Below, piece after piece: positions 3,592 through 61,700 of a stretch of 64,000 nucleotides of DNA; the first letter of the stretch is position 1; each line of letters opens with the position of its first letter. The notes under the pieces were generated by a model, which saw only the letters and a program-made list of their open reading frames with translations, did no database searches and was not told where the DNA came from. The position numbers were made by a program, and so were the translations under genes. This DNA is from Paludibacteraceae bacterium (GTDB taxonomy: Bacteria; Bacteroidota; Bacteroidia; Bacteroidales; Paludibacteraceae): NCBI GenBank assembly GCA_017454915.1, contig JAFTCC010000064.1:91322-155321 (forward strand). The letters are read 5' to 3'.

Positions 3592-3620
3592 AAAAAGTTG
3601 CAGATTTCAATAAAAAACAA

Positions 3621-3628
3621 TAACTTTG
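3621..3628 (+). promoter_or_regulatory. Bacteroidetes -7 promoter box (TAACTTTG)
   Basis: TAACTTTGcgtATG. The box ends 3 nt before the ATG at 3632, giving a leaderless configuration. Confidence 0.45.
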
Positions 3629-3631
3629 CGT

Positions 3632-7471: not shown

Positions 7472-8232
7472 TTTTTGTTTTTTTTAATTTGTTCTTTCAT
7501 CGCTTTGTAGTAATTAGTATGACATTCCAAGTAAGCCACAACATCATTAATTTCTGAAGGATCGCGCCCCAAATCAATAATGCCAGCATATATTTCTCTT
7601 AGCATATTAAAATCATCAATCGTATCGAGAGTCATCCTAATATTCTGTTTATTCTCTATTTCACATGGGATTTTCAATAATTTGCAATCAAAAATATCTC
7701 TGTGAGAATAAATGAAATTAGTAACATGCTCGTGATAAATAGCTTCTGTGGTCATTATATTGATTTTTTTCAACGCTTCTACTTTCACCGCTTCACACCA
7801 AAAACCATAATGAGTCTTAATAGTTGGGATTCCACTACTTGTCGCATAGCAAATGTAATCCGCAACAGAGCTATCAAACTCGTTGCACAATTGAGCCACA
7901 GACGATATACTTAAAAAAGGGTTGTCTGCACATATTCTGATTATTTTATTATAGCCATAAAAATCTGAAGCGTCTATAAAACGCTTCAAAACATCAGTTT
8001 CATCACCTCTAAAAACCATGCAGCCATGCCGCAAAGTTATTCCTTCCACAAGATCATCACTTTGATTGGTCGTCGTTGCTACAACAATTTTATTGGAATT
8101 AAAAACAGACGACAACTTAAGCAATAATATATCAAGCACACAATTGTCTTGATAAAACGGTAAAACTATTTTTTTAGGCAATCGTGAAGAACCTGTTCGT
8201 GCTTGAATAATTATACCTGTTTTTTCATGCAT
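7468..8232 (-). CDS. cytidylyltransferase-family protein (CMP-nonulosonate synthetase / SpsF-like)
   Basis: IIQARTGSSRLPKKI is the N-terminal motif of the acylneuraminate cytidylyltransferase/SpsF family. 254 aa. Confidence 0.7.
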
Positions 8233-8239
8233 AGTAAGC

Positions 8240-9331: not shown

Positions 9332-9363
9332 TTGATTAACACAATTTTTACTTCACCTATAAC

Positions 9364-9389
9364 AAACGACCCTTTTTCGCAGGTCAATG
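9364..9389. repeat. inverted repeat, left copy (candidate recombination site)
   Basis: AAACGACCCTTTTTCGCAGGTCAATG. It has an internal dyad GACC-N10-GGTC centred on TT at positions 13/14. Confidence 0.9.
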
Positions 9390-9555
9390 ATGCTATATTT
9401 ATTACCATATAACAAACTTTTAACTATTATGACTTCATTTCATTGTGCGGAATTTTGGGCGTTTTCATTGGCTAAGACATAACATATATAAACGCCAAAA
9501 TATTTCCACCCTATTATCGCTTACTTTCATATCAACAATAAACTTAAATGAAATT

Positions 9556-10161
9556 ATGTTTTACGGATACATTCGAGTATCTACTGACTCACAAACAGTA
9601 GAAAACCAAAGATTTGAAATCATGCATTTTTGCGCAGCACACAACATTATAATAAACGGCTGGATAGAAGAAACAGCCAGTGGCGTAATGAGTTACAATA
9701 AACGACAACTTGGTTCTCTATTGCAAAAAATTCAAAAAGAAGACACTATAATTTGTTCAGAATTGTCTCGGCTCGGGCGCAATCTTTTTATGATTATGGA
9801 AATTCTGAACATCTGCATGACCAAAGAGTGCCGTGTGTGGACAATCAAGGACAACTACAGGCTTGGAGATGACATACAGAGTAAGGTGCTGGCCTTCGCT
9901 TTTGGTTTGTCAGCCGAGATAGAAAGAAATTTAATTAGCCAGCGCACTAAAGAAGCGTTAGCAAGAAAGCGCGCTGAAGGTGTACAACTTGGAAGGCCGA
10001 AAGATAGAAAAACATCTCAAAGCGCACATAAACTCTATCCTCAAGAGGGCTTAATAAAACGTTTGAGGGCAGAAGGTGTATCATTTGCGCAGATAGGCAG
10101 GTTTCTGAAAGTAAACAAAGAAACCGTCAGAAAATACTATCACAGCTTTATTGAAACTTAA
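9556..10161 (+). CDS. serine recombinase, resolvase/invertase type (Hin/Gin/Mpi-like)
   Basis: 201 aa. YIRVSTDSQ (catalytic Ser), SRLGR, AEIERNLISQRTKEAL, and a C-terminal HTH (VSFAQIGRFLKVNKETVRKY). The ATG at 9556 is preferred over the upstream alternative start at 9445. Confidence 0.85.
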   Translation: MFYGYIRVSTDSQTVENQRFEIMHFCAAHNIIINGWIEETASGVMSYNKRQLGSLLQKIQKEDTIICSELSRLGRNLFMIMEILNICMTKECRVWTIKDNYRLGDDIQSKVLAFAFGLSAEIERNLISQRTKEALARKRAEGVQLGRPKDRKTSQSAHKLYPQEGLIKRLRAEGVSFAQIGRFLKVNKETVRKYYHSFIET

Positions 10162-10262
10162 TAGTGGACTGCTACATACGGCTTTTATTCATTTTTACTC
10201 AATTTGAGGCATCTAAATAATTGTTTTTCCTTTCTAAAATTGCAGGTTTAACAAATTATTCA

Positions 10263-10270
10263 TAACTTTG
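10263..10270 (+). promoter_or_regulatory. Bacteroidetes -7 promoter box (TAACTTTG) at inner edge of right repeat
   Basis: TAACTTTG immediately abuts IR-R (10271). It reads outward across the repeat into neuA (ATG 10329). Confidence 0.55.
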
Positions 10271-10296
10271 CATTGACCTGCGAAAAAGGGTCGTTT
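10271..10296. repeat. inverted repeat, right copy (candidate recombination site)
   Basis: CATTGACCTGCGAAAAAGGGTCGTTT is the exact reverse complement of 9364-9389. Confidence 0.9.
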
Positions 10297-10328
10297 TTTT
10301 TATACTGCTCGTAATAACTTCTAATATA

Positions 10329-11015
10329 ATGGGTAAAACACTGATAGTCATACCCGCCCGTGGAGGCAGCAAGGGCATTCCGCACAAAAACCGACGGTCT
10401 CTTGCCGGGCGTCCGCTGATTGCGTATTCCATTCAAACCGCATTAGACATCGCAACCCCGGACGACATCTGCATATCAACCGACGACCCGGAAATCGCAC
10501 AAATTGCCGAGGACATGGGCGTCAAAGTGCCTTTTCTGCGTCCTGCTGAACTGGCAAGCGACACGGCAGGTTCTTACGAAGTGCTACTCCATGCCGTCAA
10601 CTTTTACGAGCAAATGGGACGGCACTATGACACGCTGTTGCTGCTTCAGCCCACATCACCCTTGCGGACCACGCAACACGTGCGCGAAGCTATTGAACTA
10701 TATAAACAAGGAATTGACATGGTGGTCAGCGTGCAGCCTGCAAAAACCAATCCTTTCTACAACTGCTTCAAGGAAAATGCCGAAGGATACATTGAGCCGC
10801 TGCTCGCCAACAATTTGACACGCCGGCAAGATGCGCCAACAGTGTACGAATATAACGGGGCTATCTATTTCATCAACATTGAAAGCCTGAAAAAAATGCC
10901 GCTCGGGAAAATGAAACATATCGTAAAATATGTAATGGATGACATCTCATCCGTTGACCTTGACACCCAGCTCGACTGGCAAATAGCCGAATTCTTGCTC
11001 AAAAATAACCAATAA
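10329..11015 (+). CDS. neuA: CMP-N-acylneuraminate (nonulosonate) cytidylyltransferase
   Basis: IPARGGSKGIPHKN, LLLQPTSPLR and YEYNGAIY are classic NeuA/LegF motifs. Confidence 0.85.
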   Translation: MGKTLIVIPARGGSKGIPHKNRRSLAGRPLIAYSIQTALDIATPDDICISTDDPEIAQIAEDMGVKVPFLRPAELASDTAGSYEVLLHAVNFYEQMGRHYDTLLLLQPTSPLRTTQHVREAIELYKQGIDMVVSVQPAKTNPFYNCFKENAEGYIEPLLANNLTRRQDAPTVYEYNGAIYFINIESLKKMPLGKMKHIVKYVMDDISSVDLDTQLDWQIAEFLLKNNQ

Positions 11016-33370: not shown

Positions 33371-33456
33371 GAAGGAGGATTTAACTATTTAAATATTAAA
33401 ATATTTAACTATTTATTTTATTACTAATTTTAGAAAAGTGCGTAAAAACACAAGTG

Positions 33457-35909: not shown

Positions 35910-35954
35910 ACTAAAACAACTAGTCAAACTATAATAACTAGTCAAACTAGTTAA
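35910..35954 (+). repeat. 9-bp periodic ACTAGnnAA array (5 units)
   Basis: Units: ACTAAAACA ACTAGTCAA ACTATAATA ACTAGTCAA ACTAGTTAA. The array ends 21 nt before the yidD ATG. Confidence 0.85.
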
Positions 35955-35975
35955 ACCGGAACCTCTCCAAACAAA

Positions 35976-46463: not shown

Positions 46464-46797
46464 ACATGTGTTGCCTCTGGGGCTGGAATTGATTTGATGT
46501 TTGCGCTGAAAACCGCGGTAGCGGTGAAACAATGTTAGCCGTGGGTGAGTGAGCGGCAGCATCAAAAACCGCGGTAGCGGTGAAACAATGTTAGCCGTGG
46601 GTGAGTGAGCGGCAGCGAACGTAACCCACGGTACGCATTGCACACCCTATTCAAGTCGCGTAAGCGGCGGCACACTATTCCGGTTTTTTGTGCCGCCCCT
46701 ATGGGGCTAAATGAATTGACGATTATTCCGTTGTCCGTGGGTTTCGCTTCGCTCCACCCACGGCTAATTTTGTGCCGCCCTTACGGGGCTGTTCGCC
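46464..46797. repeat. composite REP-like element (module Y with internal 56-bp tandem duplication, then module X)
   Basis: Homologous to 54700-54970 with the modules in the opposite order. Tandem copies lie at 46509-46560 and 46565-46616. The hairpin-forming CCGTGGGT...ACCCACGG and the motif TTTTGTGCCGCCCCTAYGGGGCT are present. Confidence 0.85.
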
Positions 46798-46891: not shown

Positions 46892-48463
46892 ATGTACATA
46901 GACCAACACATTCTTCTGGGTCGTTCCGATAGGAACGTGTATTTGGAGCCGCGTATGGCAAACCGCCATGGATTGATAGCCGGAGCCACTGGCACTGGCA
47001 AGACAATAACCCTTGAGGTTCTCGCCGAGTCGTTCAGCGAAATGGGCGTGCCGGTGTTCCTCGCTGATGTCAAAGGCGACATCTCCGGTCTTTGCCGCCC
47101 GGGCCAGATGAACGATAACATTCAAAAACGCCTTGCCAAGTTCGGCATCGATGACTTTGAGTTCAAGCGCTTTCCTGTCCGCTTCTTCGATGTTTACGGC
47201 GAGGGCGGTCACCCTGTACGCACCACAATATCAGAAATGGGGCCGCTGCTGCTTGCGCGGCTGCTGGGGCTCACAGAAGTTCAGGAGGGCGTGCTCAACA
47301 TCGTGTTCCGCATTGCCGACGACAACGGACTGCTGCTTATCGACCTTAAGGATCTCCGCGCAATGCTCAACTATGTAGGCCAGCATGCTGCCGAATACAC
47401 CACATCGTACGGCAACGTCACCAAACAGAGCCTCGGAGCAATACAGCGCAACTTGCTGCAACTTGAGGACGAGGGAGGCGATAAATTCTTCGGGGAGCCT
47501 GACCTTAAAATCAGCGACTGGATGCAGACTGATGCTAATGGCAAAGGTTACATTAACATTCTGCACTGTGTCAAACTGTTTCAGCACCCCCTGCTCTACT
47601 CCACTTTCCTGCTGTGGATGTTGAGCGAACTGTTTGAGGAATTGCCGGAATTGGGCGACGTTGACAAACCGCGCATGGTGTTCTTCTTCGACGAAGCTCA
47701 CCTGCTGTTCAAGGATGCTCCAAAGGCCCTGATAACCAAAGTGGAACAAGTCGTGAAACTCATCCGCTCAAAAGGTGTAGGAGTGTATTTCGTAACACAA
47801 AACCCGTCGGACATACCAGACAGCGTACTCGCCCAACTCGGCAACCGTGTACAACACGCACTGCGAGCCTATACGCCGGCAGAGCAGAAAGCCGTGAGAA
47901 CTGCAGCACAGAGTTTCAGACAGAACCCCGAATTCAAAACCGAGGACGTGATTTCGGACCTCGGAGTGGGTGAGGCATTGGTGTCAACACTTGACAACGA
48001 GGGAATACCAAGCATTGTGCAACGCTGCAAAATAATATGTCCGCAAAGTTCAATGGCCGCGATTACCGATGACAGGCGAAGAGCCGAAATAGAGGCTTCG
48101 GACCTCTATGGAAAATATGAAAAAGCAATAGACCGCCAGTCGGCATACGAAGACCTGATGCAGGTGGCTCAGCAAGAAGAGCTGGAAGAACAGCTACTGG
48201 CCGAACAAAAAGCTAAAGAAAAAGAAGCCAAGAAGGCCAGCGGAGGCAGGCAGCAGAAGTCAGTTATAGAAAAAGGGCTCAATAGCGGCATGTCAAGCGT
48301 TACAAGGCAACTCAGCGGCAACATCGTGAAGTCTTTGACAGGAGGTAAAACCAAGTCCGCAAAATCTATTGCGCAACAGGCCGGAACCAATGTCCTTAAC
48401 ACAGTACTGCGGGAAGTCGGCAGCAGCCTGCTGAGAGGACTTTTCGGAACAATGAAAAAATAA
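46892..48463 (+). CDS. HerA-like P-loop ATPase (DUF853/YjgR family)
   Basis: Walker A GATGTGKT, PVFLADVKGD, and Walker B MVFFFDEAH. Lys-rich C-terminal tail. Confidence 0.8.
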   Translation: MYIDQHILLGRSDRNVYLEPRMANRHGLIAGATGTGKTITLEVLAESFSEMGVPVFLADVKGDISGLCRPGQMNDNIQKRLAKFGIDDFEFKRFPVRFFDVYGEGGHPVRTTISEMGPLLLARLLGLTEVQEGVLNIVFRIADDNGLLLIDLKDLRAMLNYVGQHAAEYTTSYGNVTKQSLGAIQRNLLQLEDEGGDKFFGEPDLKISDWMQTDANGKGYINILHCVKLFQHPLLYSTFLLWMLSELFEELPELGDVDKPRMVFFFDEAHLLFKDAPKALITKVEQVVKLIRSKGVGVYFVTQNPSDIPDSVLAQLGNRVQHALRAYTPAEQKAVRTAAQSFRQNPEFKTEDVISDLGVGEALVSTLDNEGIPSIVQRCKIICPQSSMAAITDDRRRAEIEASDLYGKYEKAIDRQSAYEDLMQVAQQEELEEQLLAEQKAKEKEAKKASGGRQQKSVIEKGLNSGMSSVTRQLSGNIVKSLTGGKTKSAKSIAQQAGTNVLNTVLREVGSSLLRGLFGTMKK

Positions 48464-48471
48464 GAGAAAAA

Positions 48472-48570
48472 AATAGAAAGACTAGAAAGACTAGTTAGAC
48501 TAGAAAAACTAGAAAGACTAGTTAGACTAGAAAAACTAGAAAAACTAGAAAAACTAGAACGACTATATAA
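48472..48570 (+). repeat. 9-bp periodic ACTAGnnAA array (11 units, with a 27-bp higher-order repeat)
   Basis: Units: AATAGAAAG ACTAGAAAG ACTAGTTAG ACTAGAAAA ACTAGAAAG ACTAGTTAG ACTAGAAAA ACTAGAAAA ACTAGAAAA ACTAGAACG ACTATATAA. The array ends 20 nt before the ATG at 48591. Confidence 0.9.
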
Positions 48571-48590
48571 AAAAGACCATAACAAAGAAC

Positions 48591-49949
48591 ATGAACCGCA
48601 TACTTGTCATTATGCTACTCTTGTCAGGAGCCCTTGCCGCAATGGGGCAGACAGCCCAAAGCGCCGACAATCTGTTCAACGCCAAGGACTACCCAAAAGC
48701 TCTCGAACAGTACCGCCAGTTGCTCAAAGGCTCGCCATCAAGCCCGCTCTACCAGTACCGCACTGCGCGCTGCCTGCAGGAAATGGGGCATTATGAGGAG
48801 GCTGCGCCATATTTCGATAGTTCATCAAACCGCTACCCGCTCGCTTTTTACTATCTTGCCGTGTGCGAGCAGCAGAACTACAACTTCGACAACGCCATCA
48901 GTGCCGCGGACAATTACCTCGCCACAGAGCCGTCAGACGACAAGCGCGTAACACTCATCAACACTCTACGCGAACAATGCCGCCTTGCGGCGCATTTCAT
49001 CAAACGCATCGACGATATAGCGATAATTGACAGCCAAGTGGTTGACAAACAAGACTTCATGCGGTATTACCACCTTTCAGCTGACGCCGGAGTCATCACC
49101 AATGCAGACGGTGGATTTTGCTACACCAACCAGCGCCGGGACCAAAGAATACTCGCACGCAACGGAAAACTATGGCGGCAAGACAAACTGGTGGACAAAT
49201 GGGAAATGCCTGTGCCACTGCCTATCGACAGCGCAGAAGGCTCCGACTATCCGTTCCTTATGCCTGACGGAGTTACACTCTACTTCGCCGCAAAAGGCGA
49301 CAACAGCATGGGCGGGTACGACATTTTCATCACTCAATACAACGATGCCGGAGAGCGGTACCTCAAACCAGAAAACCTTGGATTCCCCTACAACTCGCCA
49401 GACAACGACTATATGCTCGCTATCGATGAAAATGCAGGAATAGGTTGGTGGTGTACCGACAGGAGGCAAGCGGAAGGCAAAGTCATCATTTACAGCTTCG
49501 TACCAAACGCCGAAATTCAACTCGTAAAAAACGACGAGGACATAATCGGTAGGGCAAAACTCACCAGTCCGAGGAAGGCGCAAGTGGCAGTAAAAGCCAC
49601 TGAACAGAGAGCTGAACAACTCAGAAGAGAAAACAACGACAGCATTTTTGTCGAAATGTTTGACGACGTGGTGTACAGGCACATCAACGACTTCCGCAGC
49701 GACAGCGCCAAACAATGTTATTTAAGCATACAATTCAAGAAACTGGAACTTCAAATCACCGAACAGAGGCTCACCTCGCTGCGGAAAAAATATGCCAACG
49801 GAAACGAGGAAACAAAACAAAAGATTAGCATGGCAATCCTCAACTGCGAGCAAGACATTGAAGACTGCCGCAAGCTTATCAAAGAAGTGACACGCACCAT
49901 GAGGCAACTGGAAAAGGAAGCTATTGAGAAAGAAAACACCGAAAATTAA
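48591..49949 (+). CDS. TPR plus PD40/TolB-like repeat protein with C-terminal coiled coil
   Basis: Signal peptide and TPR-like N-terminus (YPKALEQYRQLL...). PDGVTLYFAAKGDNSMGGYDIF is typical of PD40 repeats. Confidence 0.5.
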   Translation: MNRILVIMLLLSGALAAMGQTAQSADNLFNAKDYPKALEQYRQLLKGSPSSPLYQYRTARCLQEMGHYEEAAPYFDSSSNRYPLAFYYLAVCEQQNYNFDNAISAADNYLATEPSDDKRVTLINTLREQCRLAAHFIKRIDDIAIIDSQVVDKQDFMRYYHLSADAGVITNADGGFCYTNQRRDQRILARNGKLWRQDKLVDKWEMPVPLPIDSAEGSDYPFLMPDGVTLYFAAKGDNSMGGYDIFITQYNDAGERYLKPENLGFPYNSPDNDYMLAIDENAGIGWWCTDRRQAEGKVIIYSFVPNAEIQLVKNDEDIIGRAKLTSPRKAQVAVKATEQRAEQLRRENNDSIFVEMFDDVVYRHINDFRSDSAKQCYLSIQFKKLELQITEQRLTSLRKKYANGNEETKQKISMAILNCEQDIEDCRKLIKEVTRTMRQLEKEAIEKENTEN

Positions 49950-49976
49950 ATACTATAACTCTTAGTAAGACGAGAA

Positions 49977-52900
49977 ATGAAACTATTTTTAAAGATATTT
50001 GGCATAAGCATCAGCGTTCTAATGCTGCTGGTGTTGACTGTCGCGGGCATTTTGCTCTACATGGTTTTCACACCAGAACGGCTGACGCCCATCGTTGACG
50101 GCATGGCAGGCAAATACATCACCTGCGACCACAAAATAGGCAAAGTCGAGCTAACCCTGTTTTCCACGTTCCCCGAAGTCGGGTTGCGCATTGACGATGT
50201 CACACTCATAAACGTCAACTCCGACGCGCCTACCGACACTGTTGCCCACATTGGTTCTGCCATCGGCATAGTTAATATACAGCGCTATCTTGATAGCAAA
50301 GATCTTGAAATCAACAAATTGCTGCTTGACAACGTTGATGCCACACTCTTCACTGACAGCATGGGCAACAGCAACTTTATGGTGTTCCGCTCCGACACTA
50401 CAGAAACAGACTCCGCATCAGCGTGGCCGTTTGGGACAATCAACCTCCATGAACTGAAACTGGGCAATGCCGACATACGCTATATCGACGAAAACCAAGG
50501 CATTGACGCCTGTCTGCGTGGCACAGGCCTTGACATCGAAGGCTCTATGAGCGGCGACAGTATCATCACAGGCAATTTGGTGCTTGACTGCTCAAGCACA
50601 TCTGCGCGCTACCACCACCGCAACTACCTCCGCTCACAACCCGTCAGCGTCAATATGCCATCGTTCCGCGTCAACCTCGACAGTCTGGGCATCAACATGA
50701 GCGGAGCCATTGTCAACCTCGGCGATATGAGCCTTGCCATCGATGGCACTGCCGCACTGCCAAACGACACCATCACCCTCAACATCGATGCCGCCACTAC
50801 CGACGCTTGGGCTATTGACAGTTTGCTGGCGCTCGTCAACCGCAACCTGCCCGAACTCAACCTCAACTATGACATACACGGTGACGCAACGGTAAGCGCG
50901 CACGTGAGCGGACAATACTACACACACCATTACCCCAACATCACTGCAAACGTCAAACTCGACAACGGCAGTGGCAGCTACGGGGATATACCATATAAAC
51001 TTGAGGACGTGAGCGCCGATGCTGACATCATACTCAACCTCGCCGACAGCACTAAATCATGCGTATCGCTCAACAGCCTCGCGGCACGTACACGCCAGTC
51101 TGCCATCAAAGCTAAAGGGCGGATTGACCAACTGTTTGGCGACATGCTACTCAACTTCGACGTCAATGCCGACCTCAACCTGCCCGACCTGAAAGACTTT
51201 TTGCCAAATAACATTGCGCTTAACGGACGGGCGCAGGGACCGCTGACAATCAACACGCGGCTATCGAACATCACCAATAAGCAATTCGACAAAATAGCAG
51301 CATCGACACAACTTAGCGTAACCGACCTCAAGGTTAAGTACGACGATTATTCTGTCGTTGCCGGCAAGGCTGATATAGGTGCGCGTTTGCCCAGCGGAAA
51401 CAAAAAAGCGCAGTTTGCACATATCACCATTAAGAGCGATAACATCGACATCACTCAGCGCGGCAACCTGCATGCCATAGCCCGTAGCGCAGACCTTGCG
51501 GCAGATGTCAACAACCTCACGCGCAGCGACATCTCACATCTCATTGGTGACCTCGCATACGACTTCGGACACCTCACAGCCGATGTCAGCGGAGTGCATG
51601 CCGACCTCGAAAGCCCGAGAGGTAAGGCTGCGATAGACTATGACATGAAAAACAGAACGGCTATACCGGTTGTGGACGCCACGCTTAAAGGCGAAAAAGC
51701 AGAGATTGTCATGGACACGATTAGCGTAAGCCTCAAATCGCCTGACATAAAACTCGCACTCGCCGGGCAGAAACAACGCCGCGACCAAGTGGCAGCTACA
51801 GTCAACTATAAGGGCGGACACATCAAAGCCGCGCTGGGAGAACAGATTAAAGGCGAGTTGGCTACGCTGGCTTTCAACGGCTCTGTTAAGCAAAACGACA
51901 AGCAGTTTGATTTCCTCAACATTTGGAATCCTGACCTCAAAATCAAATTGGGCGACGCTTACGCCGACTTCGCATTGTTGCCTTTCAGGCTCGAAATACC
52001 AGGCATAGACTTCGACTTCACGCCTGACGACATCATCATCCGCGACAGCAGGGTTCGCCTCGGCAACTCCGATTTCTTACTCGAAGGCAACGTCACCAAC
52101 CTCAACCGCTGGTTGTCTGGCGAGGCCAACCTTGGAGGAGACCTCAACTTCACGTCTAACTACACCGACGTCAACCAACTCATGGACCTCACGAGCGGAT
52201 TTGGCGAAAAAGACAGCACTGCTACAGAGCAGATGAACGACGACGGAGACCCGTTCATGGTGCCCAAAGGAGTGGACCTTGTTCTGCACACTCGCATCAG
52301 GAAAGCAGCCATCGGACGACAGATTGCAAACGACCTTGGAGGAAACCTCTACATCAACGACGGAACACTCGTGCTTGAAGAAATGGGATTCATCTGCCAA
52401 GCCGCCAAACTGCAACTCACAGCACTATACCGCACGCCGCGGCGCAACCACATTTACGCCGGAGTGGACCTGCACATGCTTGACATACATATTCACGAGC
52501 TCATAGACATGATTCCTGACGCGCAAGAGATGCTGCCCATGCTCTCATCGTTCAGCGGCAAAGCTGAGTTCCACCTCGCACTCGAAACGTTCATGAACGC
52601 CAAGTATGAACTCAAAACCTCAACATCAATCGGTGCCGCAAGCCTGCAGGGCAAAGACCTCGTGCTGCTCGACAGTGAAACGTTCACAAAAATCGCCAAA
52701 CTGCTCTTGTTCAGGAAAAAGACCGAAAACATAGTGGACAGCATCTCGGCTGAAATCACGCTGTGGAACAGGCAAGTGGACATATATCCGTTCATGATGA
52801 GCATTGACAAATACGCCGCAGCTGTCGGCGGACAGCACAACCTTGACGGCACCTACGACTACCACATCTCGCTCGTCAAACCACTCCCGATTGGCGTCAA

Positions 52901-53057
52901 CGTAAAAACAGGCGACGACAAAAAACTCCATATAAAGCCCACCATGCCAAAATACAAGTCCAATTTCGAACCTGTAAAACGTAATGGAGTGGAAGCGCAG
53001 AACCTCAAACTGCGCGAACAAATCAGAGCTGCACTCAAGAAAAACGTTAAACAATAG
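49977..53057 (+). CDS. AsmA/TamB-like large envelope protein
   Basis: 1026 aa with a single N-terminal TM anchor and a long beta-rich body. The architecture is that of the AsmA-like family. Confidence 0.55.
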   Translation: MKLFLKIFGISISVLMLLVLTVAGILLYMVFTPERLTPIVDGMAGKYITCDHKIGKVELTLFSTFPEVGLRIDDVTLINVNSDAPTDTVAHIGSAIGIVNIQRYLDSKDLEINKLLLDNVDATLFTDSMGNSNFMVFRSDTTETDSASAWPFGTINLHELKLGNADIRYIDENQGIDACLRGTGLDIEGSMSGDSIITGNLVLDCSSTSARYHHRNYLRSQPVSVNMPSFRVNLDSLGINMSGAIVNLGDMSLAIDGTAALPNDTITLNIDAATTDAWAIDSLLALVNRNLPELNLNYDIHGDATVSAHVSGQYYTHHYPNITANVKLDNGSGSYGDIPYKLEDVSADADIILNLADSTKSCVSLNSLAARTRQSAIKAKGRIDQLFGDMLLNFDVNADLNLPDLKDFLPNNIALNGRAQGPLTINTRLSNITNKQFDKIAASTQLSVTDLKVKYDDYSVVAGKADIGARLPSGNKKAQFAHITIKSDNIDITQRGNLHAIARSADLAADVNNLTRSDISHLIGDLAYDFGHLTADVSGVHADLESPRGKAAIDYDMKNRTAIPVVDATLKGEKAEIVMDTISVSLKSPDIKLALAGQKQRRDQVAATVNYKGGHIKAALGEQIKGELATLAFNGSVKQNDKQFDFLNIWNPDLKIKLGDAYADFALLPFRLEIPGIDFDFTPDDIIIRDSRVRLGNSDFLLEGNVTNLNRWLSGEANLGGDLNFTSNYTDVNQLMDLTSGFGEKDSTATEQMNDDGDPFMVPKGVDLVLHTRIRKAAIGRQIANDLGGNLYINDGTLVLEEMGFICQAAKLQLTALYRTPRRNHIYAGVDLHMLDIHIHELIDMIPDAQEMLPMLSSFSGKAEFHLALETFMNAKYELKTSTSIGAASLQGKDLVLLDSETFTKIAKLLLFRKKTENIVDSISAEITLWNRQVDIYPFMMSIDKYAAAVGGQHNLDGTYDYHISLVKPLPIGVNVKTGDDKKLHIKPTMPKYKSNFEPVKRNGVEAQNLKLREQIRAALKKNVKQ

Positions 53058-53061
53058 TCAT

Positions 53062-53097
53062 ACTAAAAAAACTAATCAAACTGGTCAAACCAGACAA
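53062..53097 (+). repeat. degenerate 9-bp periodic array (4 units)
   Basis: Units: ACTAAAAAA ACTAATCAA ACTGGTCAA ACCAGACAA. The array ends 8 nt before the TTG start at 53106. Confidence 0.6.
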
Positions 53098-53105
53098 CAA
53101 AAACT

Positions 53106-54671
53106 TTGAAATCTAAAATACTCATAGTGCTTTTTCTGCTGTCAGCGTGCATATCCCGCGCTGACAGCAGTTTCTTGTGCGACTTCTACGACCACACTTT
53201 TGACGGCGACCCCTACTGGCTGGGAGAGATTGACTATTTCGATTTTGAAGACGGTTGGCTCAGAGGCAATTTGACGGGCAAAGCAAAACACGCCTCTATT
53301 GCCGTGGAGAGCAACATTTTCCCCGAGGCAGACTGGGCATTCTACTATCGGCACGAGTGCCCGCTCAACGCAGGATGCCTCGCACGCGTATGGCTCGCAG
53401 CGGACCGCATTAACCTCCATAATGCGCGAGGATACTACGTGGAAATGGGGGGCGACGGGGTCATATCGCTCAAATTCAGAGGCGACGACGAAACGCTCAC
53501 TCTCTGCGAAACACAACCCATGCTCACTGGCGAAAGCGGTAAAGTGTACGTCGAAGTGTCAAGGAAAAACAACGGGGAATGGGAACTCTGGGTTGGCACA
53601 AAACCTTTATGGACCGACAAGCAAGGCTCTGCCATCCACGACACTTGGCACAACTGCCAATACACCGGCATATACATCGCAGCCACTGATGCCTCGGAAA
53701 GGCGTTGCCACTACTTCGATGACTTCTATGCCGGAGGAGAAGAAGAAACGCCGCAAGGCGAGGACATAGGCTATCAGCCCGACGACCCCGATGACCCAGG
53801 GCACCAGCCTGATGCCGTGGAAGCCGCAGACGGGACTCTGCTCATCAATGAAATCATGTTCCACCCTGAGCAAGGAGGACAAGAGTACATCGAAATCATC
53901 AACCTCACCGACCAAGCCATTGACCTTACGGGCGTTACGCTGACCACAAGAACCAGCAACGGCAAATTCAACACCGGAAACATATTCCCCGAGGGCAGCT
54001 ACGTAATGCCTCACGACGTGGCTGCGCTCACTGCAAACGCCACATTGCTTGCACAGCAGTTTGGCATGGGACAGGACACCACACGCATATTTTCCACACG
54101 ATGGCGGCAAGCGCTCAACAATACCTCGCAAACACTCTTTCTGCTCAACGAAGACAAGACGCTCTGCTTCGACTCTGTATATTACCACAAAAACTACCAT
54201 CACGTTCAAGTTAGCGACGACAGCGGCGTGTCGCTTGAGCGCCTCGGCACAACATTACCAAGTATGGAACGGGACACATGGCACAGCGCCGCAGCACCAT
54301 ATCATGGCACACCCGGACAGCACAACTCGCAGCACATCGACACTGACAAGGAGTACAGCGACGTGCTTAGAGCCGAACCTGAAGCATTCAGCCCTGATGG
54401 TGACGGAGAGGACGACATCTGTCTGCTCTACTACAACATGCCTAAAGAAGGCTACACAGCCACCATACGACTTTTCACACCGACAGGGATGCTCGTGGCT
54501 ACAATAGCCGACAATGCGCTACTCGCACAGAGCGGGTACATCATCTGGGACGGGAGAACCAACAAAGGCAACACAGCACAAATCGGGATCTACGCCCTTG
54601 TCATGCAAGCCACTCACCCAAACGGAAAGGCACTGAAAAAGAAAATCCCCGTCGTGGTAACAGGGAAATAA
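53106..54671 (+). CDS. lamin-tail-domain (LTD) protein with FlgD-Ig/T9SS-type C-terminal domain
   Basis: Signal peptide. LLINEIMFHPEQGGQEYIEIINLTDQAIDLTG is the LTD motif. The C-terminus FSPDGDGEDD...IWDGRTNKGNTAQIGIYALVMQA resembles gliding-type/T9SS CTDs. Confidence 0.6.
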   Translation: MKSKILIVLFLLSACISRADSSFLCDFYDHTFDGDPYWLGEIDYFDFEDGWLRGNLTGKAKHASIAVESNIFPEADWAFYYRHECPLNAGCLARVWLAADRINLHNARGYYVEMGGDGVISLKFRGDDETLTLCETQPMLTGESGKVYVEVSRKNNGEWELWVGTKPLWTDKQGSAIHDTWHNCQYTGIYIAATDASERRCHYFDDFYAGGEEETPQGEDIGYQPDDPDDPGHQPDAVEAADGTLLINEIMFHPEQGGQEYIEIINLTDQAIDLTGVTLTTRTSNGKFNTGNIFPEGSYVMPHDVAALTANATLLAQQFGMGQDTTRIFSTRWRQALNNTSQTLFLLNEDKTLCFDSVYYHKNYHHVQVSDDSGVSLERLGTTLPSMERDTWHSAAAPYHGTPGQHNSQHIDTDKEYSDVLRAEPEAFSPDGDGEDDICLLYYNMPKEGYTATIRLFTPTGMLVATIADNALLAQSGYIIWDGRTNKGNTAQIGIYALVMQATHPNGKALKKKIPVVVTGK

Positions 54672-55811: not shown

Positions 55812-55911
55812 CGAAATAATTTCTTACACTATTATGAATTGTAAGAAAAATGCTATAAAACCGCATTCAAATGCACGTTGCGGTTGTTGGAACGGTTTTT
55901 GCTCTAAAAAA

Positions 55912-55965
55912 ACCAGAATAACTAGTCAAACTAGAAAAACTAGAAAAACTAGTCAAACTAGAAAA
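55912..55965 (+). repeat. 9-bp periodic ACTAGnnAA array (6 units)
   Basis: Units: ACCAGAATA ACTAGTCAA ACTAGAAAA ACTAGAAAA ACTAGTCAA ACTAGAAAA. The array ends 20 nt before the porX ATG. Confidence 0.85.
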
Positions 55966-55985
55966 CCCATAAAAGCCGACAAATA

Positions 55986-57524
55986 ATGCGCATTCCTCTT
56001 GTACTATGGGCCGACGATGAGATAGACCTTCTCAAGCCCTACATGATATTCCTCGAGCAAAAAGGCTACGAAGTAATCACGAGCAACAACGGCCGCGACG
56101 CTGTGGAACTCGTCATTAAGCGCAACCCCGACATCGTGTTCCTCGACGAGAACATGCCCGGGCTGAGCGGACTTGAAACACTGCAAATCATCAAGGAGCG
56201 GCGCCCTGACGTGCCTGTGGTCATGATTACCAAAAGCGAAGAGGAGCACATCATGGAAGAAGCCATCGGCTCGAAGATAGCCGACTACCTCATCAAGCCT
56301 GTCAACCCAAACCAGATACTGCTTACGCTCAAAAAACACGTCAGCGGAAAAGAACTCGTCAGCCAACACTCCACAGCAAGTTACCGTGAAGAGTTTTCTG
56401 ACTTCAGCTACGTCATCAGTCAAGCCGCCAGCTTCGACGAATTTTGTGACGTGTACCGCAACCTCGTGCGCTGGAGCTTTGAACTCGCCGACGCAGACCC
56501 GAGCATGCGAGAGTTGCTTGCCACGCAATACAGCGACGCCAACAAAGAGTTCGCACGAGTCGTCAGACGAGACTACAAGGCATGGCTCGACAGCGAAAAC
56601 ATACTGATGAGCCACCGCATTCTGCGCACGCAGGTGCTGCCACGACTCAACAACGAAGAAAAAGTCGCACTCATCGTTATCGACAACTTCCGCTACGACC
56701 AGTGGCGGGCCGTGCAGAGCATCATAACGCAAAAACTGCGAATTGCAAGCGAAAAAATGTACTGCGCCATTCTGCCAACTTCAACGCAATATGCCCGAAA
56801 CTCCATCTTCAGCGGACTCATGCCGCTTCAAATCCAACAACGCTATCCGCAACTATGGGTGGACGAAGGCGATGAGGACAGCAAAAACCAGTTTGAACAT
56901 CAGCTGCTTGACGCGTTTTTCGAGCGGCAACGAAGGCAAATCAGCACAGCATACTACAAGGTCAACGAATCGGCTTTCTGCGAGCGGATAACAGAAAACT
57001 TCCGCCGCAAGCCGCTGCAAGCCAACGTGGTGGCTGTCGTCATCAACTTCATTGACATGCTCAGCCACTCGCGCACAGAAAGCCAGATGATGCGCGAACT
57101 GGCAAAAGACGAACCGGCATATCTCAGCCTCACAAAGTCCTGGTTTGAGCATAGCCCCACACTGGCGCTATTTGAAGAACTCCGAAGACAGGGATACACA
57201 CTGCTGCTCACCACCGACCACGGAACAAAACGAGTGCAGAACCCGGTCAAAGTTATAGGCGACAGGAACACCAACGTCAACATCAGATATAAAGTCGGCA
57301 AAAGCCTTGACTACAACGCAAAAGAAGTCATCGCATTCACACAGCCCAACAACATAGGGCTGCCTGCACCTAACATCTCAAGCCACTACATCTTCGCTCA
57401 AGACCGCGACTTTTTCGCATATCCAAACAACTACAACTACTACGCGTCATTCTTCCGCGACACTTTCCAGCACGGCGGCGTCTCTCTCGAAGAAATGCTC
57501 GTGCCCCTTGTGGAAATCAAATAA
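55986..57524 (+). CDS. porX: response regulator with PglZ/alkaline-phosphatase-like effector domain (PorX-type T9SS regulator)
   Basis: CheY-like receiver (LWADDEIDLLKPY...FLDENMPGLSG...ITKSEE) fused to a roughly 380-aa PglZ-type domain (TTDHGT). The 512-aa length matches PorX. Confidence 0.7.
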   Translation: MRIPLVLWADDEIDLLKPYMIFLEQKGYEVITSNNGRDAVELVIKRNPDIVFLDENMPGLSGLETLQIIKERRPDVPVVMITKSEEEHIMEEAIGSKIADYLIKPVNPNQILLTLKKHVSGKELVSQHSTASYREEFSDFSYVISQAASFDEFCDVYRNLVRWSFELADADPSMRELLATQYSDANKEFARVVRRDYKAWLDSENILMSHRILRTQVLPRLNNEEKVALIVIDNFRYDQWRAVQSIITQKLRIASEKMYCAILPTSTQYARNSIFSGLMPLQIQQRYPQLWVDEGDEDSKNQFEHQLLDAFFERQRRQISTAYYKVNESAFCERITENFRRKPLQANVVAVVINFIDMLSHSRTESQMMRELAKDEPAYLSLTKSWFEHSPTLALFEELRRQGYTLLLTTDHGTKRVQNPVKVIGDRNTNVNIRYKVGKSLDYNAKEVIAFTQPNNIGLPAPNISSHYIFAQDRDFFAYPNNYNYYASFFRDTFQHGGVSLEEMLVPLVEIK

Positions 57525-57529
57525 CGGAT

Positions 57530-58640
57530 TCTTTTAACGAACACGAATTGAACGAATTGTTACCTCTACGGAGTAATGGAGTTTAGGAGGTTTTCGGTAC
57601 GAATTACACGAATAACACGAATTATTTTCATGAACGGCGAAGAGATAAATTCGTTAAATTTGTGTAATTTGTGAACATGAAAAAATCCACGAACACGGAT
57701 AAACGCGGATTTGTTTCGGTACGAATAACACGAATTTCACGAACACGGATAAACACGGGTTACCGCATAGCGGTTTTCGGATGATAGACCGTGAAACGGT
57801 CATCTCTATGGTAACCGCATGTCGCGCCAGCGACTTGCGGTGGTTCACGCCATGACGATGCACGCTGACGGCGTGCCCTTATCCGCGCGTTTTGTCGCGT
57901 GGTGATTGCGATTTGACGGGTGTGGCAATATGGCACGCTTCCAGCGTGCTGTCACATATTCCGCCCAAACCGCAGGTGGCTCCGCTACCTGCGGTTACTC
58001 TATATGTGACCGCGCTGCGGTCTGAAGCGTCAGGCATTTTTTCGAAAATTCCTAACGGAATAATAATTGAATCCTCTATATTTCTATCATTCGGAATGCC
58101 ATACGGGCAATGTCGGCAACATTTTGCGTCACCGCTGACGCGGTTTTTTGTGGGTTGGCGTTGTCCGTGGGCGGCGCAAGCTTGCCCACGGCTATTTTGT
58201 GCCGCCACTCCGTGGCTGTCATTACCGCGTAGCGATTTCCGAATGATAGCAAATCGTTTCCAAAAAATCATTTACCCTATCGGGGTTTCCGAATGATAGC
58301 TTTACGCCACCCCTTAATCATTTACCCCATCGGGGTTTTCGAAAATTCCCGCTCGGCTGCGAAGCAGACGCTTTTAAGCGAAGCGAAAAAGAACGGAATA
58401 ATATATATTATCCGCTTCATTGCTATCATTCGAAATGCCATACGGGCAAGGCCCACGGCTATTTTGTACCGCCCCTACGGGGCTGTCCGACTTTGTCCTG
58501 CTTTGTCCTGCTTTGTCCGATTTTGTCCTGCTTGTTGCTCCACTGATGTACAACAGATGCTCCACAAATGTGCAACTATAAAACAAGCGTCAGCATTGTT
58601 TGGCAAAAAAAATCAAAAAATCCACAATAAATGACTATAA
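57530..58640. repeat. repeat-dense non-coding spacer
   Basis: Multiple short duplicated blocks occur here: GGTACGAATWACACGAAT, CACGAACACGGATAAAC, TTCCGAATGATAGC, AATCATTTACCCYATCGGGGTTT, TCATTCGRAATGCCATACGGGCAA, and two module-X copies. Confidence 0.8.
58491..58530. repeat. 10-bp tandem repeat (4 units)
   Basis: Units: CTTTGTCCTG CTTTGTCCTG CTTTGTCCGA TTTTGTCCTG. Confidence 0.9.
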
Positions 58641-58790
58641 GTAGTTGATTATTTGAAAAAAAATAGCGAAATTTGTAGCGGAGAAATATCCATTCACGAA
58701 AAGGTCATTCTCAAAAAAAGGGAAAAGGCACTTTTCTAAAAAACGGGAAAAGGTTATTGTCAAAAAAATCAGAAAAATACCATTAGTACT

Positions 58791-61700
58791 ATGAATACCA
58801 CGCACAACCACTCATTTATCCGCCGCACACTTGCGGCAGTAGCGTTAATAATTTCGCTCACACTACCAGCGAGGGCCGAATACACTGCACTATTCGGTGC
58901 CACAGCACAAATAAGTTCCGCACCAACTTCACCTGTTGACGTTGACGGCACCGATGTTAGTTTTTCATCATCGGTCAGCTTCAGCAGTGGGGCATACCAG
59001 TTGGAGAGCACACCAGGTGCCACAAACCAATATTACTTTGAAGTAAACGCCGGTACAGCCAAAATCAGCAAAGTCACTTTCCTGCTGTCCGGCAATGGTA
59101 GCAACAAAACGCTTCAACCTGTTCTCTTGGGCTGGGAAACTTCTATTTCCGGAACAACAACGTCAGACTATGAGGTGTTGGCAACCGCACAGACCACTAC
59201 CGCCAATTCATACGCGGCGGCTAAATGGTTCGAGTTCGACGTGAGCAGTGAAGATTTGTCTATCGTAAGAATTTATCGCGGTATAAAGACTATAAATGGC
59301 AATAGCAGCACAAGGCCTTCATCGCCTCAGACAATCAAAATTTGGGGCGTAAAAGTTGAATTACAATCGTCTGGCAGTGGTGGCGGCGACATCGACTGCG
59401 GCGGCACTCCAACCCTCAGCCCGGCTTCATTAGGCGCCGTTACCGTTGACCAGTATTCAACCCCCTCGCCTCTCACATTTACCGCAACCCCGCAAAACGG
59501 AGGCACGCTGACCTACCAGTGGTATCAGTGGCTCGACAACGAAACCGAGGCCGACAAAATACCGGCTGAAGGCACGGGAGCCAACACCAACTCATTCACG
59601 CCCGACGTTACAACAGCCTCTGTCCGCCACTATATCTGCCTCGTTACCGAAGCAGGCTGCACAAATGGCGCCGCACGACTCGAGGTCGGAGCGTACACCG
59701 TAACGCCGGCGGCACTACCAGCGGCCACAAGTCCGCACTGCATTACGCTCAATTCGTCAACACCTGCAAGCGGCACTACAAGCCAAGGCATCACATTGTC
59801 GTACGTCGGCAACGGAAGCATTACAGACAACAACGGAATCAACTTTAGCTCCAACAACACGCACTATGTCAGCGTTGACATTGGCTCACTCGGACATATT
59901 ACACAAATTGTTGCTAACGTCAAAGCCGGCAGCACCAGCACAACCAAGGGCATAAGATACGTATTCGATGAGCCATCAACCGTGTCTGGCGGTACAACCG
60001 TCGCAAGCGTCAACACCGCATTCCACGATGAAACCATTACCGCGCCGGACAACACACGGACAAAGTTCACCATGACGCGATGGGGTACATCGCTCTACGT
60101 GAAGAGCATCTGCGTGTACTTTGAGGCAAACACTTACTATTCTGTCACCTACAACGCCAACGCCGCAACTTCTGGCACCGCGCCTACCGACGCTAACAGC
60201 CCTTACAGCTCTGGGACTACAGTTACCGTGCTCGGCAATACGGGCAACCTTGCCAAGACGGGCAAGAACTTTGCCGGATGGAACACCGCCGCTGACGGCA
60301 GCGGAACAACATACGCGGCTGGAGCGACATTCACCATCTCGCAAGATGTCACACTCTACGCACTTTGGGAAGACCCATGCCTTGCGCCTACCATCAATAA
60401 CAGCATCGGAACATTCGAGTACGGCCAGAATGAGACATCTACGGCACTCACCGTTTCCGCCACAGCCAACAACAACGGAGGCGCGCTCAGCTACCACTGG
60501 TATCAGTACGAACAGGGCGAGACACCCGCACAGCGCATTGACGCCGTGGGAACAGGCGCCACCACCAACTCGTTCACGCCATCAACTGCCACACTCGGCA
60601 CAAGATACTTCATCTGCGAAGTTAGGGAAGCCGGGTGCTCCGAAGTCGCCTCAATAACGTCCGGAGCATTCACCGTACACAAAGTGCGGCACCAAGGATG
60701 GGTAATCTTTGACGGCACGTTCGACACCAGCTTGCTCACATCAATAACACACAATGCTGTAACAGTTGATTTCGCTTACACCAGCGCAAACATCGCCGAC
60801 TGCTCAACATACACCAACAACGCCGACGCGAATACCTACCTCAACAGTGCCAAGATAAGCATGGCTTCGAGTGGTGGCAACCTCATGTTCACCGTGCCCG
60901 AAGGATACATGGTAACCCAAATCGACTATGCGTTTGCCGTAGCAGGAGGCAACAGAAACATCGTCATAGCCAAGTCATTTGTCACAGCAGCCGATGATGA
61001 GGACGTCCTCTTCACAGGCCTCACCCCTGGCGGTTCAAAAACCGTCAAGGCGGGTTCGCTGACATCCCTTTCGCTCGAGGCAGGCAACTACTACGTGGAG
61101 TCAGTTGGAACCGGCGGCACATTCGAAATTCTGTACCTCGAACTCACACTTGCCCTCGACCCGTGCACGGCACCGACCATCAGCGCGGCTCAAGCAGCGG
61201 AAAACGCCGCAACATTCGCAAGCGGAACCGTCAACTATGCGGCTGACAAAACATTTACCGTGCTCGCCACGGCAGCCGACGCCTATCCGCTCAAATACGA
61301 ATGGTACCGCAACACCGTAAACAGCAAAACGGGCGCAACAAAAATCGCCACCACAACCACCAACACTTACACCATAACCAACATGGAGCCCACCGAGCAG
61401 ACCTACTACTTCTACTGCATCATTAAATCAAAGTCATGCGCAGTGGAAACTGACCTCGGCGGCGCATTGGTCTTCAATGGCGAACCCGACTGCGTGGCTC
61501 CAACCAGTGTCACCATCAGCGGTGACTATGCGTATCTCGCCGGGCAGACTGTCTCGCTCACAGCTACTGCCACAGGACACACCGGAATACTATCCTACCA
61601 ATGGCAGAAAGAAATCTCAACCGGAAACTGGCAGGACATAAGCGGGGCAACCAGCGCCACATACACCAAAGCATCTTGCGGATACGGCGACAGCGGACAG

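Follow-up and report, generated by a model that had tools for sequence, protein, structure and literature searches.

Introduction

Repeats in front of genes can tune expression in bacteria, as do the 7-bp repeats before hmw1A and hmw2A of Haemophilus influenzae and the AGAT repeats in the uspA2 leader of Moraxella. The repetitive extragenic palindromic (REP) elements depend on a conserved GTAG tetranucleotide that is cut by RAYT transposases. Phased tandem sites also serve as operators: MetJ binds tandem 8-bp met boxes, TrpR occupies ACTAG half-sites in tandem at a spacing of 8 bp, and arrays of 7-bp repeats are bound by the omega repressor. Here we analyze a stretch of 64,000 nucleotides (the window) from a contig of a Paludibacteraceae bacterium (JAFTCC010000064.1, positions 91,322 to 155,321), in which four spacers between genes carry head-to-tail 9-bp repeats built around ACTAG. 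The four sites are copies of an apparently undescribed repeat family found in some gut and rumen Bacteroidales, and the number of units differs between closely related strains.

According to a survey of satellites in prokaryotes, most species have few of them, and dispersed families in non-coding DNA are a rare exception; Bacteroidetes and CTAG are not mentioned there (PMC6749651). The general avoidance of CTAG is known and only partly explained; the tetranucleotide is a known insertion-sequence (IS) target, and restriction-modification alone does not account for its avoidance (PMC4687349). Bacteroidetes do without Shine–Dalgarno (SD) sequences, and two studies describe their translation initiation as tuned by mRNA structure and A-rich upstream bases (PMC6847099, PMC3155529). 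The first-pass annotation of the window, which was made without database searches, knew of no described element like these arrays. In agreement with this, searches of Rfam and of the literature on CTAG or tandem repeats in Prevotella, Bacteroidales and Bacteroidetes yielded no description of the family.

Results

ACTAG arrays in the window

Four arrays of ACTAG 9-mers, all oriented like the downstream gene, had been annotated, and their coordinates, unit numbers and orientation were confirmed. The arrays and the segment that follows the largest one are as follows.

35910–35954, + strand: yidD array of 5 units, ACTAAAACA, ACTAGTCAA, ACTATAATA, ACTAGTCAA and ACTAGTTAA, 3 of them with CTAG
48472–48570, + strand: main array of 11 units of 9 bp, 1 degenerate (AATAGAAAG), 9 of the form ACTAGnnnn and 1 ACTATATAA
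48571–48590, + strand: constant A-rich 20-nt segment between the main array and the start codon, with equivalents at 35955–35975 and 55966–55985
53062–53097, + strand: decayed array of 4 degenerate units, ACTAAAAAA, ACTAATCAA, ACTGGTCAA and ACCAGACAA, without CTAG
55912–55965, + strand: porX array of 6 units, 5 of them with CTAG, ACCAGAATA followed by units of the ACTAGTCAA and ACTAGAAAA types

All four are in 9-bp register. The main array, with CTAG in 9 of its 11 units, fills the spacer between the stop codon of a HerA-like gene (48463) and the ATG of a tetratricopeptide repeat (TPR) gene (48591), ending 20 nt before the latter. It contains a higher-order repeat of 27 bp, ACTAGAAAG ACTAGTTAG ACTAGAAAA; the super-repeat proposed earlier is recovered by Tandem Repeats Finder (TRF), which reports at 48474–48565 a period of 9 with 10.2 copies and a period of 27 with 3.2 copies. 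TRF also detects the 9-bp period at 55904–55965, at 35918–35956 and, weakly, at 53058–53090. The yidD array lies between the stop codon of an acyltransferase gene (35892) and the ATG of yidD (35976) and ends 21 nt before this ATG. The decayed array, whose cores read ACTAA, ACTAA, ACTGG and ACCAG, is placed between the stop codon of an AsmA-like gene (53057) and the TTG of an LTD-domain gene (53106), and ends 8 nt before the TTG. The porX array is found in a divergent spacer and ends 20 nt before the ATG of the PorX-like gene (55986). The earlier statement that three of the four arrays end 20–21 nt before a start codon is therefore correct (21, 20 and 20 nt; 8 nt for the fourth), and Pfam and gene analysis confirm the assignment of YidD and of a PorX-like protein with receiver and PglZ domains to the downstream genes. 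The arrays stay clear of the A-rich segment of ~20 nt, presumably a ribosome-loading zone. In three of the four cases the array is flanked by co-directional genes and starts 4–17 nt past the upstream stop codon, so that it lies downstream of a stop as much as upstream of a start.

None of the four window arrays falls within an open frame of a real gene; all are located between called genes. A translated leader peptide, or read-through from the HerA-like gene, was considered and rejected. In the main array one frame, which would read Leu-Glu-Lys, stays open in phase with the TAA upstream. All three frames of the yidD array are closed, however, and arrays share a frame with the downstream open reading frame (ORF) about as often as expected by chance.

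The count of exact pattern matches in the window is by itself weak evidence (12 against 5.6 expected). Three of the arrays contain 17 of the 19 CTAGs of the window, and 0 of 100 order-3 Markov simulations produced a run of three or more CTAGs at 9-bp spacing. Rfam 15 gave no match at gathering score in the whole window and none at E ≤ 1 in 48380–48680, and a plasmid-borne or mobile origin was rejected, as a plasmid collection gave no match.

Copy-number variation between strains

Strain alleles were taken from contigs of other samples that encode exactly the same flanking proteins. These contigs come from metagenome assemblies; an array is shorter than one read, and independent samples gave identical alleles. 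Over ~7 kb no mismatch separates L121 and L131 from the window, but the TPR array of both contigs lacks 27 bp (6 CTAG units against 9). In another sample, L120 and L134 (0–1 mismatches) carry the short TPR allele with one core mutated. The long allele was found in three further samples, in one of them with a single base change at a variable position, and is therefore no assembly accident. Variation in unit number between strains, which the first-pass annotation had suspected, is thus observed among contigs with identical flanking proteins, across which the TPR array has 9, 6 or 5 CTAG units.

More distant contigs extend this picture to the other arrays. The yidD array has 3 CTAG units in the window and 9 in L122–L124 (98.7–98.9% identical), in two unit orders. 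In L303, a 21.5-kb contig of the ~98.9% lineage, the TPR array has 5 CTAG units against 9 in the window, and the porX array has 8 CTAG units and one degenerate unit against 5 CTAG units. Unit number in the ~98.9% lineage is altered at all three CTAG-bearing arrays (TPR, yidD and porX). The porX array is identical in L126–L128, three contigs that encode identical PorX. The start-side flank of the TPR array is the same in all strain variants, as is that of the porX array, and the yidD-proximal flank differs between lineages. These comparisons show that units are gained and lost much faster than bases are substituted, and that the arrays are variable-number tandem repeats (VNTRs). The array at 53062, which has no CTAG, behaves as ordinary sequence, in what is a single case: its length in L303 is that of the window, and point changes are confined to one unit.

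A second copy-number-variable repeat, unrelated to CTAG, was observed in the 667-nt spacer upstream of the HerA-like gene. It is a perfect 56-bp tandem repeat (1.9 copies) at 46509–46616, and the same spacer is 56 nt shorter in L121 and L131, contigs that are otherwise identical.

A repeat family in Bacteroidales

Species-representative genomes, one per species, were scanned for three consecutive units, and the loci were retrieved as fixed 8-kb blocks. At least 119 loci matched, of which ~91 are from Bacteroidales among the matches listed, and this scope applies to the array statistics of these loci below. The Bacteroidales carriers are Prevotella/Prevotellaceae, 'Bacteroidaceae' metagenome-assembled genomes (MAGs), Paludibacteraceae, Muribaculaceae and unclassified rumen and gut MAGs, and include the cultured Prevotella disiens JCM 6334. 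The remaining loci are scattered three-unit matches in other phyla. Arrays that were not themselves the cause of retrieval occur about once per 34 kb in the Bacteroidales loci.

Neighboring CTAGs are spaced by 9 bp in 82 cases, by 10 bp in 16 and by 8 bp in 8. Run sizes are bimodal, with 152 single CTAGs, 2 pairs and 20 arrays of 3–12 units. The gene-oriented consensus is A-CTAG-(A/T)-A-A-(A/G). On the gene-sense strand A exceeds T in 44 of 58 arrays, and the motif is asymmetric, since the A preceding CTAG is conserved at 68%. Pairwise diversity within arrays ranges from 0.01 to 0.05 over the four core bases, and is 0.22 at the A before them and 0.37–0.41 at the four variable positions; the CTAG core is ~10 times less variable than these four positions, a comparison that is partly ascertainment-biased because arrays were defined by their CTAGs. 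No array was found in 80 loci of HerA homologues (53–67% identity, 427 kb), in which CTAG is moderately depleted (0.29). The family is lineage-restricted. Its unusual traits are a core formed by the most avoided tetranucleotide, a strict 9-bp phase, a spread across genera, and its occurrence in both non-coding and coding DNA.

A phage origin was rejected: the 87 viral-contig matches are mostly perfect single-unit repeats in AT-rich giant-virus MAGs, and none is of the heterogeneous Bacteroidales type. Many giant-virus MAGs contain perfect (ACTAGAAAA)n runs. A prophage-like family (L217, L220, L231, L242 and L259) carries perfect (ACTAGCGAA)n at the same position across isolates, with 6 to 84 units, and is an extreme VNTR that probably codes for Glu-Thr-Ser. 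Three contigs of one Flavobacteriales MAG (L048, L050 and L106) hold G-rich units of the GGGAGACTAG/GGTGACTAG type with mixed 8–10-bp periods, which may be a related phenomenon outside Bacteroidales.

CTAG avoidance

Outside the arrays, CTAG occurs twice in the window against 101.5 expected and is the most avoided tetranucleotide. The ratio of observed to expected CTAG is 0.02 in the window, 0.115 in array-bearing loci and 0.29 in array-free Bacteroidales loci.

This gradient bears on the possibility that the arrays originate from an enzyme. A CTAG-specific restriction or nicking enzyme with imperfect protection, a CTAG-targeting IS transposase or a HUH/RAYT-like nuclease might purge single CTAGs and duplicate or delete 9-bp units. 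One enzyme with this site, BfaI (C^TAG), is from Bacteroides fragilis. Of the explanations considered, a CTAG-specific enzyme would account best for CTAG as the core and for the strongest purge of isolated CTAGs in array-bearing genomes. The conserved core with its variable flanks, the strict 9-bp period in many unrelated lineages, the frozen length of the CTAG-less array and the appearance of arrays whatever the coding status also speak for such an origin. So does the role of CTAG as an IS target whose avoidance is not due to restriction-modification alone (PMC4687349). On the other side, no candidate enzyme was found among the window ORFs scanned with Pfam (most of the larger ORFs of the 64 kb), RAYT (Y1/HUH) transposases included, and the same genomes contain many repeats without CTAG. 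We also know of no enzyme that makes 9-bp staggered cuts at CTAG. Decay by very-short-patch (VSP) repair from CTAG to CCAG or CTGG, suggested by the border units ACCAG and ACTGG, was rejected: broken internal units show no strong bias of this type, and neither CCAG nor CTGG is over-represented. Taken together, we consider an enzyme-driven origin improbable.

A broader proposal is that a lineage-specific enzyme or binding protein reads ACTAG or ACUAG, the arrays being new copy-number-tunable control elements at the junctions of SD-less polycistronic mRNAs. Such a factor would account for both the near-total purge of isolated CTAGs and the upkeep of phased arrays; we regard its existence as doubtful.

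The two isolated CTAGs of the window, at 5808 and 7216, are both inside a sialic-acid/capsule gene block, which may have been acquired horizontally. The window is also strongly short of GATC (observed/expected 0.17) and GGCC (0.30).

Placement and neighboring genes

The genes around three of the junctions in the window form a co-directional group.

46892–54671, + strand: genes for a HerA-like ATPase, a TPR protein, an AsmA-like protein and an LTD-domain protein (Pfam), with no + strand terminator-like sites at the junctions

Since + strand terminator-like sites appear only after 54671, the four genes probably form one operon. Arrays occupy two of its three internal junctions, the live array at 48472 and the decayed one at 53062. 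With regard to a possible orientation of the arrays by replication, GC skew in the window simply follows the gene strand.

To the two arrays of the window with at least four CTAGs we added the Bacteroidales loci among the matches listed, giving 107 such arrays, which were classified by context. ORF calls were crude (ATG only, at least 80–120 aa), and array orientation was taken from the flanking bases.

Between co-directional genes, A-rich strand sense: 32 of 107 arrays
Between co-directional genes, A-rich strand antisense: 11 of 107
In convergent spacers: 14 of 107
In divergent spacers: 6 of 107 (6 of 85 non-internal arrays)
Inside long open frames: 22 of 107
One or both neighbors undetermined: 22 of 107

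Sense arrays between co-directional genes are at a median distance of 6 nt from the upstream stop codon and 28 nt from the next ATG, and in 6 of these 32 the first TAG of the array is the stop codon of the upstream gene. Among the matches listed, an ORF starts within 60 nt on the sense side of 45 arrays and on the antisense side of 14 (p = 6.5e-5). The last CTAG is mostly 12–46 nt from the ATG in other genomes. Several arrays are followed by sense-strand terminator hairpins and therefore lie in 3' untranslated regions (UTRs).

The genes downstream of arrays in other genomes, judged from N-terminal sequences, include those for Der, RF3, L7/L12, MutS, RuvC, GlyA, transketolase, SusC-like proteins and lipoproteins. 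An N-terminus resembling a signal peptide or membrane segment was seen in 23 of 55 downstream proteins among the matches listed. The idea of one regulator linking envelope and type IX secretion genes, raised in the first-pass annotation, does not survive this wider view. The genes downstream are diverse housekeeping and surface genes that form no gene set, and arrays lie mostly between co-directional genes, not in divergent spacers, with about a fifth inside genes. A dedicated regulator or regulon is not supported.

Operator arrays at the DNA level would be expected to bind a small dimeric protein (ribbon-helix-helix, TrpR/MetJ-like or nucleoid) cooperatively at a CTAG every 9 bp, with repression or organization of the neighboring genes. 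The palindromic core is strongly conserved at fixed phase, and MetJ, TrpR and the omega repressor do bind phased tandem sites. Divergent spacers, which bear promoters, nevertheless hold the fewest arrays (6 of 85), the orientation of the arrays is biased relative to transcription, and the neighboring genes are functionally unrelated. Arrays also occur inside genes, their unit number varies freely among close strains, and no candidate gene for a DNA-binding protein adjoins the window arrays. The canonical Bacteroidetes -7 box (TAnnTTTG) is found within 120 nt upstream of only 2 of 55 arrays and never inside one, which also led us to reject a promoter element. We judge DNA operators to be very unlikely.

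Arrays inside genes

In-frame copies within proteins make up about a fifth of the arrays and encode (Thr-Ser-X)n as ACT-AGY-NNN. Examples are at L002, L066, L051, L110, L049 and L100. According to Pfam, one is in the linker that precedes the C-terminal domain of an ABC-F ATPase, in two species, one lies within the Topoisom_bac domain of a topoisomerase, and one separates the Helicase_C and TRCF domains of Mfd. A predicted protein with more than 2,000 residues and a predicted secreted protein rich in coiled coils contain further in-frame arrays. The coding insertions are at orthologous positions in different species and differ in length. CTAG is otherwise almost forbidden in these genomes, and the coding arrays must therefore be the same DNA-level repeat, expanded where insertions of a multiple of three are tolerated. 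No other observation argues as strongly as these in-frame copies that the arrays result mainly from DNA dynamics and were not built as regulatory sites.

They also weigh on a function as an RNA recognition site, according to which ACUAG would be bound by an RNA-binding protein, or by an endoribonuclease that processes polycistronic mRNA, with CUAG consequently purged from coding RNA. The sense-strand bias and intercistronic placement, the near-absence of CTAG from the rest of the window and the asymmetric motif with its 68% conserved A agree with such a site. An endoribonuclease, however, would cleave the coding arrays in the essential Mfd, topoisomerase and ABC-F genes, a quarter of the operon-internal arrays are antisense, and Rfam is negative. 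To our knowledge, no RNase or protein is described for ACUAG arrays. RNA recognition is, in our estimate, most improbable; placement, gene diversity and the coding copies count against it and against DNA operators, and both are disfavored.

Predicted folding

Because CUAG is self-complementary and phased, each array is both a direct repeat and its own inverted repeat. The predicted RNA folds are ladder hairpins, with 5x5 A-rich loops between nested 4–6-bp CUAG:CUAG helices. Folds of shuffled sequences are less stable (z -1.3 to -10 for the arrays), and most arrays have many competing registers, so that the best structure is a small fraction of the ensemble. In the seven arrays followed by an ATG, the last 20–30 nt and the start codon are unpaired in the predicted folds. 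The antisense RNA is predicted to fold in the same way, but with U-runs. An antisense hairpin with a U-run would resemble a terminator, which may be the reason for the 3:1 sense bias inside operons. The same ladder geometry, if formed in DNA, would stabilize slipped intermediates, by analogy with hairpin-forming triplet repeats.

For the A-rich translation-enhancing leader suggested in the first-pass annotation the picture is mixed: the A-rich strand is preferentially in mRNA sense and the last 20–30 nt are predicted to be unpaired, but the predicted folding of the arrays is stronger, not weaker, than that of shuffled sequences. These features also fit an adaptive mRNA element, either an A-rich standby or insulating spacer for SD-less initiation or a REP-like hairpin that stabilizes the upstream cistron, with changes in unit number as heritable fine-tuning. 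The A-rich strand is sense in 44 of 58 arrays; the arrays stop ~20 nt before the start codon in a zone that is unpaired in the predicted folds; and they lie in presumably transcribed spacers without terminator-like sites, directly past stop codons. The same junctions are kept across lineages, and another repeat replaces the array in the porX leader of sister species. The use of structure and A-rich upstream bases in SD-less initiation, described in the studies cited above (PMC6847099, PMC3155529), is in line with this. Several observations are contrary to it. Coding regions contain about 20% of the arrays, and of the 43 in co-directional spacers 11 are antisense. Predicted folding exceeds that of shuffled sequences, so the arrays are not simply unstructured, and an A-rich spacer would not require CTAG. 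Close strains tolerate 3 or 9 units before the same gene, and more distant Paludibacteraceae have no spacer at all before porX. An adaptive role of this kind is possible but, in our view, rather unlikely.

Other short tandem repeats

In 748 kb, comprising the Bacteroidales loci among the matches listed and the window, ~126 short tandem repeats without CTAG were found (period 6–12, at least 3.5 copies). They amount to ~1 per 6 kb, ~75% are intergenic, and half of the intergenic ones are within 80 nt of a start codon. Heptamers dominate, with TTTTCAC/GTGAAAA, AATTGAG and GTTGACA recurring. Within this general tendency to repeats in these lineages, the CTAG 9-mers recur most and are the ones with a conserved core. 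The other repeats are often directly beside CTAG arrays.

The porX leader illustrates this tendency. A species with 85% PorX identity has ACTTTCA x4.4 directly before the ATG, and one with 70% identity has CTATAAGCC x5.2. At these sister-species loci (L305:1853–1883, L306:323–353 and L307:1–48) the position keeps a repeat and the sequence is replaced. The Paludibacteraceae porX loci at 58–60% identity have neither spacer nor repeat.

Further repeats were observed elsewhere in the window. A mostly non-coding stretch of 1.27 kb at 57524–58791, before the gene of a 1461-aa surface protein with Listeria-Bacteroides repeats, contains ACGAATTAC x2.9, ACGAATAAC x2.6, CTTTGTCCTG x4.3 and a 25-mer x2.9; its 10-mer array is also present in the species with 85% PorX identity, in 5.2–6.3 copies (L305:4401–4463; L306:2872–2923). 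The 8-bp repeat ATTTAAAT x4.6 is located at 33379–33415, in the divergent spacer that separates a - strand gene ending at 33370 from a + strand gene starting at 33572. In the region 8232–10329, a serine recombinase gene (Resolvase domain, 9445–10161) lies between two divergent blocks of capsule genes (NeuB, CMP-sugar and polysialyltransferase-like), and a 20-bp x2.1 repeat is at 8232–8273. This region may be an invertible or recombinase-controlled capsule switch.

Discussion

The reading that we favor, still tentatively, is that the arrays are a self-propagating, slippage-prone minisatellite, which selection confines to tolerated places and whose effects on leader length and folding are secondary. 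Slipped-strand mispairing or unequal exchange would create and remodel the arrays as DNA. The self-complementary CTAG cores are probably of help here, as looped-out units could fold into the ladder hairpin of 4–6-bp CTAG:CTAG helices and 5-nt loops. If only units with an intact core propagate, the core would be maintained by molecular drive, and selection would merely set where arrays remain. One such place would be the transcribed spacer from the stop codon to the ribosome-loading zone of ~20 nt, with the A-rich strand in mRNA sense; the other would be the interior of proteins, as in-frame Thr-Ser-X linkers. Arrays would add ~30–100 nt to the intercistronic spacer or 5' leader, together with a weak, register-shifting hairpin, and polymorphism in unit number could quantitatively tune the expression of flanking genes.

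Several observations weigh against a minisatellite of this kind. Isolated CTAGs are purged harder in array-bearing genomes (0.02 and 0.115 against 0.29), which hints at a CTAG-specific factor or a selected signal, and a minisatellite as such does not predict CTAG, over any other 4-bp palindrome, as the propagating core. Two-unit arrays are rare among the matches listed (2 against 20 arrays of at least three units), which is not what simple birth and growth from single CTAGs predicts. Arrays are kept at the same three junctions in lineages ~1% apart and stand at orthologous sites in different species (L085/L108, L011/L015 and L022/L041), and the porX leader holds some repeat in three related species; both points may indicate selection for a repeated leader. 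A function at the RNA level could account for the 3:1 sense bias just as well. The ORF and orientation calls are crude, and the genome sample consists of the matches listed.

Some gut and rumen Bacteroidales have intergenic DNA that is unusually dense in fast-evolving short tandem repeats, including one family with a cross-genus core built on the tetranucleotide that bacteria avoid most. The arrays are ready strain-typing markers for uncultured Prevotella, Paludibacteraceae and Muribaculaceae, and they naturally supply essential proteins with in-frame Thr-Ser-X linker insertions. Spacers that contain arrays will be handled wrongly by gene callers and assemblers. If the arrays tune expression or are read by a CTAG factor, they bear on how individual genes are adjusted in SD-less operons and on why bacterial genomes avoid CTAG. 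A cultured carrier in which both questions can be tested is Prevotella disiens ATCC 29426, with arrays at L116:2491–2586 and 3571–3700.

Comparison with known systems

The arrays are a bacterial VNTR or extragenic repeat family and not the control site of any one gene set. Like contingency loci and 5' repeats, they consist of short tandem units beside a start codon whose number differs in near-identical strains, presumably through slippage, and a possible effect on expression would be quantitative, as for the hmw and uspA2 repeats. The first-pass annotation had offered a contingency locus as one interpretation. Its variable part stands: head-to-tail units differ in number (TPR 9/6/5, yidD 3/9 and porX 5/8) between contigs that are 98.9–100% identical elsewhere. 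Its switching part does not, as no on/off switch is apparent. The 9-bp period is a multiple of three and allows no frameshift switching, coding copies remain in frame, and arrays lie past stop codons and in leaders, not in promoter spacers (-7 box in 2 of 55). Contingency loci number a handful, whereas the ACTAG arrays would reach about a hundred per genome when extrapolated from ~1 per 34 kb in the sampled loci. Nor is there an association with surface or host-interaction genes (23 of 55 with signal-peptide or membrane features). Unlike contingency loci, the arrays precede both housekeeping and surface genes, mostly inside operons, also occur inside genes, and have one core in common across Bacteroidales families.

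The REP elements and bacterial interspersed mosaic elements (BIMEs) of enterobacteria are likewise high-copy, extragenic, transcribed, intercistronic or in 3' UTRs, capable of forming hairpins and arranged in variable clusters. The ACTAG arrays share the high extragenic copy number within transcription units (32 + 11 co-directional, 14 convergent and 6 divergent). The conserved tetranucleotide is GTAG in REP/BIME and CTAG here. REP units, however, are imperfect palindromes of 35–40 bp in alternating orientation, whereas the ACTAG units are direct, head-to-tail 9-mers that are palindromic only in the 4–6-bp core; and REPs are not found in frame inside genes, as ACTAG arrays are.

The operators of MetJ and TrpR resemble the arrays in their phased short repeats, and CTAG is the contacted core in the trp operator. 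Their period is 8 bp instead of 9 bp, and ACTAG arrays reach 20 or more units. The arrays also differ from these operators in that they do not overlap promoters, are not placed at the promoters of a coherent regulon, are biased relative to transcription and are hypervariable.

The satellites of Leptospira interrogans and Methanocella conradii are similar in that related tandem repeats are scattered over the genome and mostly non-coding (PMC6749651). Those satellites have units longer than 30 nt, whereas the ACTAG family has a unit of 9 bp, extends over many genera and occurs at a far higher density.

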